From Planctomycetota bacterium (GTDB taxonomy: Bacteria; Planctomycetota; UBA8108; SXIK01), in the NCBI GenBank assembly GCA_965223265.1, contig OZ244999.1, forward strand, positions 1,856,001 through 1,920,000: DNA of 64,000 nt. Reading direction: 5' to 3'. Under the pieces are notes generated by a model, which saw only the letters and a program-made list of their open reading frames with translations, made no database searches and was not told the DNA's origin. The position numbers and the translations under genes are program-made. Position 1 is the first letter of the stretch. Every line of letters starts with the position of its first letter. Positions 1 through 42,726 of this stretch are shown here, in pieces.

Positions 1-16
1 GCGCGCGCTCGGTTTC

Positions 17-45
17 TTGTCCTCGGGGGCGCATTGTCCTATCAT
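17..45 (+). promoter_or_regulatory. Putative sigma70 promoter
   Basis: TTGTCC (17-22) and TATCAT (40-45) with a 17-nt spacer; it points into a hairpin-rich region that ends in an intrinsic terminator. Confidence 0.55.
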
Positions 46-204
46 CGGGAGTCAACGATCCGGTTGGAGGCGCACGCACGCCTCCGGCGTCGCGTCGAAC
101 GTGAGATGTGGCGCGATCGGGCCCGCGCTGCAGCATACGGCGACTGCAGCGCGGCGGCGGTGATCTGGAACCGCTCTTGCACACGCCGCGAAAGGAGGTG
201 GTCC

Positions 205-249
205 TTGTCACAAGACTTGACGGTGATTCGCGAGGTGGTGACCTCCTGA
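205..249 (+). CDS. Putative 14-aa small peptide MSQDLTVIREVVTS
   Basis: Very strong SD AAAGGAGGTG (191-200), TTG start 6 nt after AGGAGG, TGA at 247-249. Confidence 0.35.
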   Translation: MSQDLTVIREVVTS

Positions 250-356
250 TTTGACACGAAATCTTTCGGTGTCATCCCCCTGAAGGTCGTTGGACCTCAG
301 ATAGCCCTCGGACGGGCTATCTGCTTTCTCTGCTCAGGAGGAACCAGGCACCACCG

Positions 357-410
357 AAGCCCCGATGGACCGTGCCATCACCGGCGGAGACCCATCGGGG
401 CTTTTTTTTT
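357..410 (+). terminator. Rho-independent terminator
   Basis: AAGCCCCGATGG (357-368) pairs with CCATCGGGGCTT (392-403); T9 run at 402-410. Confidence 0.75.
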
Positions 411-520
411 GCCCTGACGATAGCGACTCTCGCCGCAGGCCACGACTCTCAGGCGTGGGGAGGCAGTCGCTCCTGACTGACGCGCAGCGCGCACGACCGA
501 TCGCTGGGCTCGTCCTCGTC

Positions 521-757
521 TTAGAATAACGTATACATAAACGATCCGAGCGGCGTGCTGTGAAGAATGATGAGTAGTCCAAGGAGAAGCAGCACGATGA
601 CGATGGGGGCTAACCACCACCTCTTGTTGGTGATGAGAAAGTCGTAGAACTCCGCGACGATGCCTACCGACTCCGCCTCGGCCTGGCGGGCGAATTCGTC
701 CGCGCTGGACGAAGCGTTCGGCTGTTGGTTTTGGCGGGTTGAGTCGTCCGATTTCAT
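521..757 (-). CDS. DUF5989 (SxtK-like) small membrane protein
   Basis: NKRWWLAPIVIVLLLLG...FMYTLF signature; follows the carbamoyltransferase and SxtJ-like genes. Confidence 0.85.
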   Translation of the reverse strand: MKSDDSTRQNQQPNASSSADEFARQAEAESVGIVAEFYDFLITNKRWWLAPIVIVLLLLGLLIILHSTPLGSFMYTLF

Positions 758-776
758 TTAGGTGCCAGCGGGGGTA

Positions 777-1181
777 TCAGAATTGCTTGAAGTATCGCGA
801 CTTGCTTGCGGCGGCCGCGCGTGGCGTCCAATAGGAGTCTTCCCCAGTCATGCCTCTGTGCAGCGGATCTCGTCCACAGAGGCGCATCAAAAAGCCAACG
901 GGCACGACGACGAGGTAGAACACAGAGCCAAGCAGGACCTGTGTCAGCGTCCAGCCGATGGGGAACGTCAAGTAGGTCCAGCCAAGGTAGATCGGGCGCC
1001 GTAGGGGCGGGACAAATGCAAAGAGGGGCGCCACAACCGCAGCGCTGGTCCAAGCGACCTTGCCCGCTGTCGCGTTCACCTGCCAGTAGAGCACGGCGCC
1101 AAGTGCGGCAAAGAACACGACGAAGGCGATGCCGAATAGTCGCAGCTCCCTCGGTGACGGGTTCTTGTTGATCTCGATCAT
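777..1181 (-). CDS. SxtJ-family membrane protein
   Basis: RELRLFG, hydrophobic helices, G-x-D-P-L and C-terminal SYW...YFKQF pattern. Confidence 0.85.
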   Translation of the reverse strand: MIEINKNPSPRELRLFGIAFVVFFAALGAVLYWQVNATAGKVAWTSAAVVAPLFAFVPPLRRPIYLGWTYLTFPIGWTLTQVLLGSVFYLVVVPVGFLMRLCGRDPLHRGMTGEDSYWTPRAAAASKSRYFKQF

Positions 1182-1193
1182 AGCAGGATTTCT

Positions 1194-3032
1194 TCAATCA
1201 AGAGAGAACTGAGCTAGATAGGCGTCCGTGTCGATGGGGGGCGCGTTTTTCTGTTCCGTTTTGAGAACAAGGCAGCGCTCCAGCACGAGGGCGTCCATGT
1301 TTGTCGCCATGAAGCAATGATAGGCCTCTTCAGGGGTGCAGACAATCGGTTCGCCGCGGACGTTGAAGCTCGTGTTGATGAGAACAGGGCAGTTTGTCCT
1401 TTTTTCGAAGCTTTTGAGAAGGCGGTAGTAGCGTCCATGCCGGCGTTTATCCACGGTCTGAACGCGTGCGGAGTAGTCGACATGCGTTGTCGCTGGGATC
1501 TCGGATCTGCTGACGTGGAGACGGTCGAACCCACTTGGCTGTTGTGTCCCGTCGACGCACTCTGTTCGTTTGGCATTGCTCACCGCTGCGACAAGGAGCA
1601 TGTATGGACTCTCGCTCGCCTCGGGTAGGTCGAAGAATTCGCCGGCACGCTCGGCAAGCACCGACGGCGCGAACGGACGAAACGACTCGCGGAATTTGAT
1701 CTTCCGGTTCATCACAGACTGCATCTTCGCGCTGCGTGCGTCACCCAAGATGCTCCGTCCCCCGAGCGCTCGCGGGCCAAACTCCATGCGCCCTTGCATC
1801 CAGCCGACGACGCTCTCGTCGGCGAGCAGCTCTGCCACGCGGTCGCAGAGGGACTCGTCGTCGTCAAAGCAGTGGTACTCCGCGCCAGCCTTGTCTAGGA
1901 AGCGCTTCACCGTGGCATCATCGAATCCGGGACCGAGATAGGATCCCTGCTGCGCGTCGCCGACTTGGAGGACTCGCGGTTGGTCGAGTAGTTGATGCCA
2001 GATGAACAGCGCAACACCAAGTGCACCGCCTGCGTCACCCGCAGCAGGTTGAATCCAGATGTCGTCCAAGTCGAGCTCGTCCAGCAGACGGCCGTTGCCA
2101 ACGCAGTTGAGTGCCACGCCGCCAGCAAGACAGAGTCGCTTCATGCCTGTCTCTGCGAGTACGTGGCGCGCCGCTCGCAGCATGATTTCTTCGGTGACTT
2201 TTTGGATCGACGCCGCGATGTCCATATCGCGCTGCGTGATCGCGGACTCCGGCTTTCGCGGCGGGCCACCGAAGAGGCGATGGAATTTGCGGCTCGTCAT
2301 CGTCAACCCTTGACAGTAGTTGAAGTATGACATGTCCATGTGCAGCGATCCGTCCGGCTTCAAGTCGATCAGCTTTTCGAGGATAAGTTCGGCGTATCTG
2401 GGTTCTCCATAGGGCGCTAGGCCCATGAGCTTGTACTCCCCTGAGTTCACCTTGAAGCCGGTGTAGGCTGTGAACGCCGAGTAGAGGAGACCTACCGAGT
2501 GGGGAAACCTGAGTTCGTGCGTCAGGTGGATACTATGCCCGCGGCCGATGCCATAGCTCGCGGTGGCCCATTCGCCGACACCGTCGAGTGTCAAAATCGC
2601 AGCCTCCTCGAACGGTGATGGAAAGAAAGCGCTCGCCGCGTGAGATTCGTGGTGCTCGGCGAAGACGTAGCGTTTCTTGAACCCACCGCCGAGCCCCTTC
2701 CTCAGTTCTCGCGGCAGATGGAGCTTTTGTTTCAACCACAGCGGCATGGCGCGGCGAAACGAGCGCCAACCGACGGGAACGAATGACAGGTAGGTCTCGA
2801 GCAGGCGCTCGAACTTTAGAAACGGTTTGTCGTAAAAACCGACGTAGTCGAGATCCTGTGCTTCCAGACCGGCTTCGCCGAGACAGTAGGAGATGGCTTC
2901 GACGGGGAATCTGTGGTCGTGTTTGGTACGCGAAAAACGCTCTTCTTGCGCCGCAGCGACGATCTCACCGTCGACGATCAGCGCCGCGGCGGAGTCGTGA
3001 TAGAACGCAGAAATACCTAGAATTGCACTCAT
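1194..3032 (-). CDS. O-carbamoyltransferase (NodU/CmcH family)
   Basis: ILGISAFYHDSAA, EERF, HHESHAASAF, GEYKLMGLAPYG, EFGPRALG, KFRESFRPFAP and NTSFNVRGEP motifs; start placed at MSAILG. Confidence 0.95.
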   Translation of the reverse strand: MSAILGISAFYHDSAAALIVDGEIVAAAQEERFSRTKHDHRFPVEAISYCLGEAGLEAQDLDYVGFYDKPFLKFERLLETYLSFVPVGWRSFRRAMPLWLKQKLHLPRELRKGLGGGFKKRYVFAEHHESHAASAFFPSPFEEAAILTLDGVGEWATASYGIGRGHSIHLTHELRFPHSVGLLYSAFTAYTGFKVNSGEYKLMGLAPYGEPRYAELILEKLIDLKPDGSLHMDMSYFNYCQGLTMTSRKFHRLFGGPPRKPESAITQRDMDIAASIQKVTEEIMLRAARHVLAETGMKRLCLAGGVALNCVGNGRLLDELDLDDIWIQPAAGDAGGALGVALFIWHQLLDQPRVLQVGDAQQGSYLGPGFDDATVKRFLDKAGAEYHCFDDDESLCDRVAELLADESVVGWMQGRMEFGPRALGGRSILGDARSAKMQSVMNRKIKFRESFRPFAPSVLAERAGEFFDLPEASESPYMLLVAAVSNAKRTECVDGTQQPSGFDRLHVSRSEIPATTHVDYSARVQTVDKRRHGRYYRLLKSFEKRTNCPVLINTSFNVRGEPIVCTPEEAYHCFMATNMDALVLERCLVLKTEQKNAPPIDTDAYLAQFSLD

Positions 3033-3086
3033 GTGGGAGAGGCATCTCGCAGGGTGTGATCGGCGCGAGGTCGCGGACTCGTTCCA

Positions 3087-3248
3087 ACAGCCCGTTGAAA
3101 AAGTCATTCGGCCGAGGAAACTGGTCTCTTCACGCCCAGCTCGACCGCGTCAATACTCGAAAATCCCGAAGATTGCCTGCGTTTGCCGCGGCCGATCTGG
3201 ACGCGAAGAGACCAGTTTTCGGCTCGAAGCACTTTTTCAACGGGCTGT
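3087..3248. repeat. Family A palindromic MITE-like element, complete copy
   Basis: Terminal inverted repeats ACAGCCCGTTGAAAAAGT...ACTTTTTCAACGGGCTGT with internal self-complementarity; further copies occur in this window. Confidence 0.85.
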
Positions 3249-38764: not shown

Positions 38765-39268
38765 GTACGCCGTGAAAAGGCACGAATCCTCAGTGGGTGA
38801 GAATCCCACCCGGCAACTGGTCGCTCCAGCCGGTAGCACCCGGAGCGACGGAGGGAGGTAACGACCTACGTCGAAGTACTTCAGGAAAAGGGTCGCTGGG
38901 CGACCCAGCGAGCACGCAGGCCGTAACGTGAGTGAACGCCGAGCAGGCCTCGAAAGAGTCAATGCAGGAGCCGACCCTCCGCTAAACAGGGGAAGGCTGC
39001 CAACCAATGGACGAGAAGAGCGACAGCATCCAATGGTTCCTGCCGGGGTAGTGGCGATGGCATGCGTGCCAACGGAGATTCGATGCAACACGGGAAACCC
39101 CGACGGTGGCGCGGCGTGAGCGCCAAACCGGAGCTCCGCGAGGAGCCGGCCGGGCCGTCCGGGGCGGCGGATAGGCCCGTAGTACCGCAGACGCCGGGTA
39201 ATGCCGGTTGAGGGAAGGGGCCTTAGTTCAAGGTTAACGTCAGAAGCCATGAGAGCCGGGAGATTGGC

Positions 39269-42516: not shown

Positions 42517-42726
42517 TCTAGTCCGACTCACTGAACGGACGCGCAACTTTCCGTGGGCGAAAGTATGAACCTTGTCCGAAAGCCGGATGCGGGAAAACCG
42601 CACGTCCGGTTTGATGAGCGGGAGGTGGAAACAGGGCACGGTCTGAGGCTATTTGGCACCGGCAGACGAAAGAGCCGGAAACGGAAAGTCCTTGGCCTAA
42701 ACCACTGCGCCACCTCTCGACTCTAC

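Follow-up and report, generated by a model that had tools for sequence, protein, structure and literature searches.

At the left end of the window (the whole 64,000-nucleotide stretch of the Planctomycetota contig OZ244999.1 that was analysed, with position 1 as its first letter), a very short open reading frame (ORF) follows a long complement of the 16S rRNA 3' tail, and the question is what such an arrangement would do with the ribosome it engages. The original prediction saw here a small-peptide mRNA gated by two mutually exclusive pairings, with a logic like that of type I toxins, or else a decoy RNA that binds 30S subunits. Its starting point stands: all 14 nucleotides of AAAGGAGGTGGTCC (positions 191–204) can pair with the 16S 3' tail, with one G·U pair, and comparison with the genome's own 16S 3' end confirmed this. 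The sole 16S gene detected ends in ...GCGGCTGGATCACCTCCTTT, followed by CTAAGG (also given as ...GGATCACCTCCTTT plus CTAAGG), and G190 forms a 15th pair with the tail, provided that the mature 16S rRNA retains the next C.

The 14-mer occurs once in the genome (9.18 Mb, 60.8% G+C, single contig). Because counting pairs with unlimited G·U does not discriminate in this G-rich genome (33 sites have at least 15 of 16 pairs), sites were ranked by duplex energy instead, across 35,539 sites that each had at least 12 of 16 positions able to pair with the tail. The window site ranked second genome-wide at -27.6 kcal/mol, and the sole stronger predicted tail binder was the antisense of the 16S gene itself (-28.4 kcal/mol); for comparison, a bare GGAGG:CCUCC duplex has -7.0 kcal/mol. 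The next-strongest tail complements (at genome positions 8,566,756, 8,453,774 and 8,453,983) did not share the architecture described below (Table 1).

Table 1. Parts of the RNA locus, with positions counted from the first letter of the window
Feature	Position	Strand	Basis or remark
Promoter-like site TTGTCC - 17 nt - TATCAT, sigma-70-like	17–45	+	Consensus scan
5' hairpin, GGAGGCG stem, CACGCA loop, CGCCTCC stem	66–85	+	
Second 5' hairpin, lineage-variable	87–114	+	Minimum free energy (MFE) fold of 52–410; variable in alignment A1
10-bp hairpin CGCGCTGCAG / CTGCAGCGCG, loop CATACGGCGA	124–153	+	Sequence and MFE fold
Hairpin GCGGT / ACCGC, CUGG-containing loop	157–174	+	
Extended Shine-Dalgarno (SD) sequence GAAAGGAGGTGGTCC	190–204	+	15-nt complement of the 16S 3' tail, one G·U
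Small ORF, TTG start, 14 codons, TGA stop, MSQDLTVIREVVTS	205–249	+	Sequence and ORF conservation in homologues
Mid-ORF GGTGAT, complementary to 16S AUCACC (second such site) as well as to the 377–382 loop AUCACC	222–227	+	
ORF-end GAGGTGGTG, third SD-like site	232–240	+	GGTGGT 234–239 is the 5' strand of helix 1
CCTCCTGA, last two codons and stop codon	242–249	+	5' strand of the stop helix; alternatively masks the SD
Lineage-specific insert with three hairpins (251–274, about 284–295, 298–323)	251–323	+	73 nt
TCAGGAGG, 3' strand of the stop helix	334–341	+	Sequence, helix counts and MFE fold
Conserved 3' block CCAGGCACCACC	344–355	+	ACCACC 350–355 is the 3' strand of helix 1
Terminator domain, base stem 359–368 / 392–401, inner-hairpin loop AUCACC 377–382, T9 402–410	359–410	+	

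Conservation across other genomes likewise shows the tail complement to be more than chance. A BLAST search of window positions 1–450 against 60 relatives showed the blocks 156–254 and 337–388 to be conserved in other families of the order, and scanning one genome per species with an exact pattern yielded 48 loci in 48 species-representative records. The pattern forced GGTGAT..GAGGTG..CCTCCT, so the invariance of these bases among the loci is partly by construction. A covariance model (R1) was built from 44 of 46 distinct sequences, two with large inserts being left out. The extended complement was kept in every homologue found. It reads AGAAAGGAGGTGGTCC in most lineages, AGAGAGGAGGTG.. or AGAGAGGAGG.. 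in others, and AGAAAGGAGGTGATCC in three lineages found by the covariance model, where all 16 nt are Watson-Crick complementary to the tail. Two of the genomes with an A-to-G change in this site keep the standard 16S tail, so that the change yields a G·U pair. The 13-nt core of the site is AAAGGAGGTG, then A or G, then T; among the sequences not forced by the search pattern, all but two vary within its first 12 nt only by A/G exchanges opposite U, by which the pair is kept. The two exceptions have one mismatch each (homologue L075, GGTGACCC; homologue L077, an inserted G plus GGTGGCCC). Judged by these exchanges, the SD is evidently selected for pairing with the 16S tail.

The ORF that was proposed downstream of this site, (M)SQDLTVIREVVTS, also withstood comparison. 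An ATG, GTG or TTG lies in frame 6–12 nt past GGAGG in 38 of 39 distinct SD-to-stop segments from homologues (ATG 16, GTG 19, TTG 3), and one homologue, L074, has no canonical start codon. The ORFs comprise 13 codons in 26 segments, 14 in six and 15 in six, and end in TAG (23), TGA (10) or TAA (6) across the 39 segments. Their products share a tail V-I-[C/S/R]-E-V-[V/M/T]-[A/T/S]-S, typically ..V-I-C-E-V-V-A-S, in which the window peptide has Arg at the Cys position, while the N-terminal 4–6 residues are free to vary and are often Cys-rich (e.g., MCMCTPT.., MSCCFPM.., MCILT..).

Such a pattern raises the possibility of an ordinary small-protein gene, in which the 13–15-residue peptide is the functional product and the RNA folds and strong SD set its level and stability. 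This would account for the conservation of ORF, start codon and length with all three stop codons in use, for the third-position variation of the Ile (ATC/ATT/ATA) and Cys (TGT/TGC) codons, and for the recurrence of extra Cys in the variable N-terminus; moreover, C-E-V stands in the same frame in the consensus of an actinobacterial Rfam family discussed below, and the conserved tail ..VICEVVAS could itself be the functional product. Nonetheless, we consider this reading unlikely, since codons 2–5 are wholly unconserved and those codons that are conserved fall on paired or 16S-complementary RNA motifs. The third positions of GTG, GAG, GTG, nCC and TCC are fixed even in sequences found without the pattern, and because of this coincidence the constraints on peptide and RNA are inseparable here. 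The 15–16-nt complementarity also far exceeds what initiation needs, and no conserved maturase or partner gene lies nearby. Four weak matches to the covariance model, of uncertain homology, likewise speak against it: they keep the SD, a 12–15-codon ORF and GGUGA..GAGGUGG but have another reading frame for these bases or a different peptide.

A docking or decoy RNA, the second option of the original prediction, is somewhat less probable still. Here, a 16-nt duplex would hold or shield the 16S 3' tail and thereby sequester, park or protect 30S or 70S particles, or report free ribosomes, and the short ORF would serve only to load or release the ribosome. The complement extends right to the 3' terminus of the tail, and across phyla it is kept with pair-preserving changes only in most lineages; the 16S antisense apart, no site in the genome is predicted to bind the tail more strongly. 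Two further sites complementary to the tail lie inside the ORF, one of which, GGTGAT, is invariant in the 44 sequences of alignment A2 (partly forced by the search pattern; L075 has GGTGAA instead). Pairing of this site with the 377–382 loop is a candidate interaction, for which the invariance leaves no covariation signal. The RNA carries tail-like elements of its own as well, namely CCUCCU, the ACCACC or AUCACC block and a CACC or CGCC loop (AUCACC in the window), the last being present in the first hairpin of the terminator domain in 42 of 46 homologues on 19 different stems. Similarly, the consensus of another small RNA (sRNA), CC2171 (RF01867), begins with cGAAAGGAGGUGAUCCAGUG, in which this full-tail complement again precedes a start codon. 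Against such a role, titrating ribosomes from a single gene copy would demand a very abundant RNA, the conservation of the ORF and its start codon requires an extra assumption, and the gene is patchy within the phylum.

The strands of the proposed SD-sequestering switch lie where they had been placed, with ACCTCCT at 241–247 and CCTCCTGA and TCAGGAGG as in Table 1. Because RNAalifold on a plain MAFFT alignment gave a poor, fragmentary consensus, two helices were specified by hand and counted on alignment A2. In helix 1 (GGUGGU:ACCACC), 100% of alignment cells were paired and two of six pairs had changes on both sides; GGTGAT:ATCACC and GGTGAC:GTCACC are further covarying cases. The stop helix, formed by CCUCCU-stop-GC with GCCUGGGAGG, had 88.5% of cells paired (part of the unpaired cells reflect a one-base bulge in one genus, which the column count does not capture), and four of its pairs change on both sides. 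The covariation includes the stop codon itself: UGA stands opposite UCA or UCG, UAG opposite CUG, and UAA is accommodated via a bulged A. Taken together, 92.9% of cells were paired in the two helices, versus 36–66% when the partners were slid by 1–3 columns, and six pairs changed on both sides; 5–6 of 500 shuffles reached the observed values. Statistically the covariation is modest, and it comes from mutually related sequences. The 3' block tracks the end of the ORF rather than the SD (in lineages found by the model, GGTGAT goes with ATCACC and GGTGGT with ACCACC).

One half of the switch, the pairing of CCTCCTGA with TCAGGAGG, thus lies within the helix whose covariation extends to the stop codon. 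For the other half, masking of the SD by CCUCCU, the pairing is possible in 99.6% of cells, but six of its seven pairs are invariant and covariation therefore speaks neither for nor against it. Partition-function folding of 46 full-length homologues divided them between the two states: SD:CCUCC pairing reached P ≥ 0.7 in 19, pairing of CCUCC with the 3' block reached P ≥ 0.7 in 10 (the window included), and neither state was dominant in 17. In the full-length window RNA, CCUCC paired with the 3' sequence at P = 0.99, and in a transcript cut 10 nt past the stop codon the masked SD was favoured (P = 0.60). This split fits a switch without amounting to proof of one: the two states are predicted to be close in energy family-wide, and gated translation is plausible.

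A maskable SD invites comparison with the mRNAs of type I toxins and other SD-sequestering switches, in which an internal complement can close the SD and alternative folds are adopted. The gated SD and very short ORF fit such an mRNA; yet MSQDLTVIREVVTS and its homologues are charged peptides of 13–15 residues with no membrane-spanning hydrophobic stretch, an antisense partner is not evident in the sequence, and the overlapping ORFs belong to no Pfam family. Furthermore, the locus occurs only once per genome, and what is kept across phyla is a structured RNA gene. The toxin-like logic of the original prediction is accordingly unsupported, and we regard a type I toxin mRNA as scarcely credible.

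The helices and ORF are embedded in a larger gene, and the original prediction had overlooked both this whole ~360-nt RNA gene and its kinship to a known orphan sRNA family. Folding of positions 52–410 gave z = -6.68, with none of 100 shuffles folding as well. In 39 of the 54 distinct upstream regions taken from homologues, a promoter-like site comparable to that in the window precedes the 5' hairpin at a similar distance; control stretches lying another 315 nt upstream, whose number went unrecorded, contained no such site. The gene ends in a terminator whose base stem covaries strongly among 44 homologues (e.g., at columns 358/438, UA in 22, CG in 19, GC in two and AU in one). Family members share the same anatomy in order, comprising a promoter-like site, a multi-hairpin 5' domain, the extended SD, the ORF, a long hairpin that has the end of the ORF as its 5' strand, CCAGGC-ACCACC and a three-way terminator domain. 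By eye, the 5' domain presents conserved loops (ACACAG or ACGCAG, AUCGGCG and CUGG) on differing stems. Thus, the loop AC(A/G)CAG of the 5' hairpin is conserved while its stems differ (GGTC/GACC, GAGAC/GTCTC, GGGGT/ACCCC and others, by eye), homologues have a hairpin with an AUCGGCG-like loop at the position of 124–153, and CUGG is kept on lineage-specific stems (by eye, the MAFFT alignment being inconsistent at 157–174). Most homologues have a single hairpin where the window has its insert.

The genes downstream of the element (521–3107; DUF5989, SxtJ-family and carbamoyltransferase) lie on the minus strand, as does the upstream gene, indicating a stand-alone unit rather than a cis leader. 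For the long frames that overlap the element on either strand, a search for Pfam families found none. No gene neighbour common to the lineages was found either; neighbours elsewhere include a class-V aminotransferase, DNA polymerase III delta, a DEAD-box helicase, SDR and PFOR, and several of the family-less ORFs are probably spurious high-GC frames. Together with the ribosome-directed reading set out below, we hold, at somewhat better than even confidence, that about positions 52–410 form one independently transcribed, highly structured sRNA of ~360 nt, whose transcription start is placed by inference.

This gene organization also bears on a cis-acting leader-peptide attenuator, in which the position of the ribosome on the ORF would decide the fate of the terminator and of a downstream gene. 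The layout of a short ORF, alternative helices and an intrinsic terminator is that of an attenuator, but no same-strand gene follows the terminator in the window, and the nearest downstream ORFs are on the opposite strand in most other lineages (same-strand ORFs occur in L031, L037 and L041). The base stem of the terminator also does not overlap the switching strands. We therefore consider attenuation very improbable. A related comparison is rnTrpL/peTrpL of Sinorhizobium, reported to be a small terminated RNA with a leader ORF of ~14 codons on which the position of the ribosome alters the fold (PMC6614838). In these respects it resembles the element; however, rnTrpL originates in an attenuator that precedes trp genes, and it follows a Trp-codon logic, whereas the element has neither a downstream gene nor an amino-acid codon run.

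We compared the locus with known RNA families. At the Rfam gathering thresholds, window positions 1–800 gave no match, and the sole matches in the window were parts of a group II intron at 38.8–42.7 kb. At E ≤ 10, the 1–800 region gave weak matches to gabT (minus strand), asX2, sar and CC2171. The gabT match was rejected, as its 27.8 bits fall below the 45-bit threshold and it corresponds to the palindromic hairpin at 124–153. Two other RNAs were also discarded. Like tmRNA, the element is a structured RNA containing a short ORF for the ribosome to read, but it has no tRNA-like domain, its ORF comes with an SD and a start codon, and ARAGORN reported no tmRNA here, placing the one tmRNA of the genome at 1,023,522–1,023,874. 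For 6S RNA, no RF00013 match was obtained in the genome at E ≤ 1, and the architecture of the element is unlike 6S.

The homologues point to an orphan sRNA family, Ms_IGR-5 (RF02471). In Rfam scans at E ≤ 0.5, this model matched the element in seven of eight homologue loci on the same strand over model positions 1–184; L031 scored 47.1 bits, above the 45-bit gathering threshold, six others scored 24.7–35.7 bits, and L028 had no match. The window copy gave no RF02471 match at E ≤ 10, and so did not reach the 45-bit threshold, probably because of its 73-nt insert; its membership consequently rests on a chain that leads from the window to planctomycete homologues, from these to the L031 type, and on to Rfam. 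The likeness extends to the parts. The RF02471 consensus has AAGGAGGUGGUCC, a 12-codon ORF ending ..UGU GAG GUG ..UAG, a stop-codon helix, a CAGUCACC block (CAG.CACC) and a terminator with an inner hairpin; L031 aligns to the model over positions 1–184, and the same parts were found in the window. Both RNAs are also free-standing and have no assigned function. They differ in their carriers, which are Actinobacteria for Ms_IGR-5 and Planctomycetota, Binatota and Methylomirabilota here, and in the end of the ORF, which is ..GCCCGC-stop in Ms_IGR-5 versus ..CCUCCU-stop here, so that only the element described here could mask the SD core with its ORF end. In addition, the conserved ~140-nt 5' domain of the element falls outside the Rfam model. 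From these sequence comparisons, we lean, jointly with the explanation favoured below, toward the view that the element is by descent a divergent, non-actinobacterial branch of Ms_IGR-5. The features that the original prediction singled out are hallmarks of this family, and the tip of a conserved RNA gene.

Ms_IGR-5 was reportedly first found in Mycobacterium smegmatis, and Li et al. 2013 is said to be the original paper. According to later reports, the RNA was confirmed in Streptomyces lividans by RNA-seq (PMC8079986), constitutes its own sRNA transcription unit in Streptomyces avermitilis (PMC8780764) and yields significant ribosomal reads in Mycobacterium abscessus and M. smegmatis (PMC4974804). 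Our literature search on Ms_IGR-5 and CC2171, with the original 2013 Ms_IGR-5 paper outside its scope, found no mention of a 16S complement, an ORF or a function, and searches on the peptide motifs, on anti-SD sponges or small ORFs, and on RNA motifs of Planctomycetes and Rokubacteria found nothing relevant.

The distribution of the element is wide and patchy. By their titles, the 48 records of the pattern scan comprise Planctomycetota (11), Binatia/Binatota (11), Rokubacteria (7), Methylomirabilota/NC10 (7), Thermodesulfobacteriota (2), Polyangiaceae (1), a ‘delta proteobacterium’ (1) and eight unlabelled records. Near-identical elements occur under differing labels, however, and hence only three further phylum-level groups were counted as safe. 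Within the order of the window genome, R1 matched 14 of 21 genomes with one match each, most of these sequences having trained the model; by family, matches were obtained in one of three genomes of the window's own family (the window genome excluded), 12 of 14 of a second family and none of three of a third. Across 151 genomes drawn evenly from the phylum, strong matches (E ≤ 2e-18) were found in seven and weak ones in four more. The gene is missing from seven of the 21 genomes of the order, among them one from the same family that is 91% complete and comprises 4 contigs, so it is not indispensable and its occurrence is patchy. Wherever present it is single copy, and no paralogue was found elsewhere in the window genome.

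CC2171 may be a more distant relative. It is an orphan sRNA of Caulobacter and other Alphaproteobacteria, and it aligns with the element only at the SD end and one hairpin (22.2 bits for L031 and 15.6 for the window, versus a threshold of 75); kinship is thus a lead suggested by sequence rather than an established relationship. One study reports its confirmation by Northern blot in Methylorubrum, with no assigned function (bioRxiv 10.1101/2022.01.24.477521), and the accessible portion of Schrader et al. 2014 contained no mention of it. We tentatively raise the doubtful but far-reaching idea that the element, Ms_IGR-5 and perhaps CC2171 form one widespread ribosome-docking class, in which a duplex covering the entire 16S 3' tail, together with the two in-ORF sites and the tail mimics AUCACC and CCUCCU, would hold the ribosome through a 13–15-codon ‘test drive’. 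Such RNAs might keep idle subunits parked or protected, guard the 16S 3' end against 3' exonucleases, or report the supply of free ribosomes by refolding.

The reading that we find most likely, if with only slightly more confidence than doubt, is that of a translated, bistable sRNA whose business is with the ribosome. Its 15–16-nt duplex, complementary throughout and conserved, would cover the whole single-stranded 16S 3' tail and may dock the 30S subunit unusually tightly. The ribosome would then read the conserved 13–15-codon ORF, which holds two more 16S-complementary sites, GGUGAU and GAGGUGGU; for translation itself, the only support is that ribosome footprints have been reported for the actinobacterial relatives. 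As the covariation shows, the 5' strand of a long-range helix is made up of the final five codons plus the stop codon, its partner being the conserved 3' block that adjoins the terminator domain; CCUCCU may instead mask the SD. As these strands are shared, folding and translation would be coupled: a ribosome at the stop codon would have to melt the stop helix, freeing the 3' block, and an RNA with no ribosome could close its own SD. An interplay between RNA and ribosome, be it a translation-gated riboregulator or a ribosome-engaging RNA, is a likelier output of this gene than the peptide alone.

An orphan sRNA family known only from Actinobacteria would thus be represented by relatives in no fewer than three further phylum-level groups. 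As far as our searches reach, its full complement of the 16S tail, conserved mini-ORF and helix covarying with the stop codon are undescribed, and the combination points to a direct relationship between RNA and ribosome kept over great evolutionary distance. Streptomyces and M. smegmatis, which carry Ms_IGR-5, make this link testable. Were the RNA instead to do no more than encode a peptide of 13 residues, it would still rank with the shortest peptide genes to have been kept across phyla.

The gene for the structured small RNA is convergent with a downstream gene set on the minus strand. Elsewhere in the window, Rfam matches above threshold to group II intron D1-D4-4 (91.5 bits) and to group II intron domains V/VI (45.4 bits) suggest, on sequence grounds, the presence of a group II intron of ~4 kb.

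Annotated features of the window
Feature	Window position	Strand	Basis
DUF5989 protein, 78 aa	within 521-3107	-	Pfam
SxtJ-family protein, 134 aa	within 521-3107	-	Pfam
Carbamoyltransferase, 637 aa	within 521-3107	-	Pfam
Group II intron parts	38791-38931 and 42578-42726	+	Rfam, above threshold

The third-strongest complement to the 16S rRNA 3' tail in the genome (-26.7 kcal/mol) lies outside the window, at G000:C1:8566756-8566800 (+; CGGGAGGAGGTGGTCC), and has TTG and an 8-codon frame on its 3' side. This site appears to be antisense to a repeat-protein gene, and the architecture of the small RNA element is not present there.

Among the homologous loci, two Methylomirabilota-type copies (L043 and L055) carry inserts of ~70-100 nt within the hairpin 3' of the stop codon. 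The rokubacterial copy (L028) adjoins a DEAD-box helicase and also lies near a cspA thermoregulator match (L028 427-818, +), which is below threshold (53.3 bits vs threshold 78).

Weak matches to R1, the covariance model built from the homologues, were found at L080 and L081 (genomes G029 and G027), L082 (G195), and L083 (G151), with E values of 1e-4 to 7e-4. The stretch AGAAAGGAGGTGGTCC is kept in the first three, and L083 has the shorter GAAAGGAGGTGGTCC in its place. All four retain an ORF of 12-15 codons, with differing peptides (MIVRGSIRRWVR, MEESFSSQRGGTA, MTSSRPYGDRRWLSA). L080 and L081 also have a terminator-like hairpin with a T-run after it; no such hairpin was seen in the inspected flanks of L082 and L083. 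These loci may belong, as divergent members, to a broader class of small RNAs with an extended SD.
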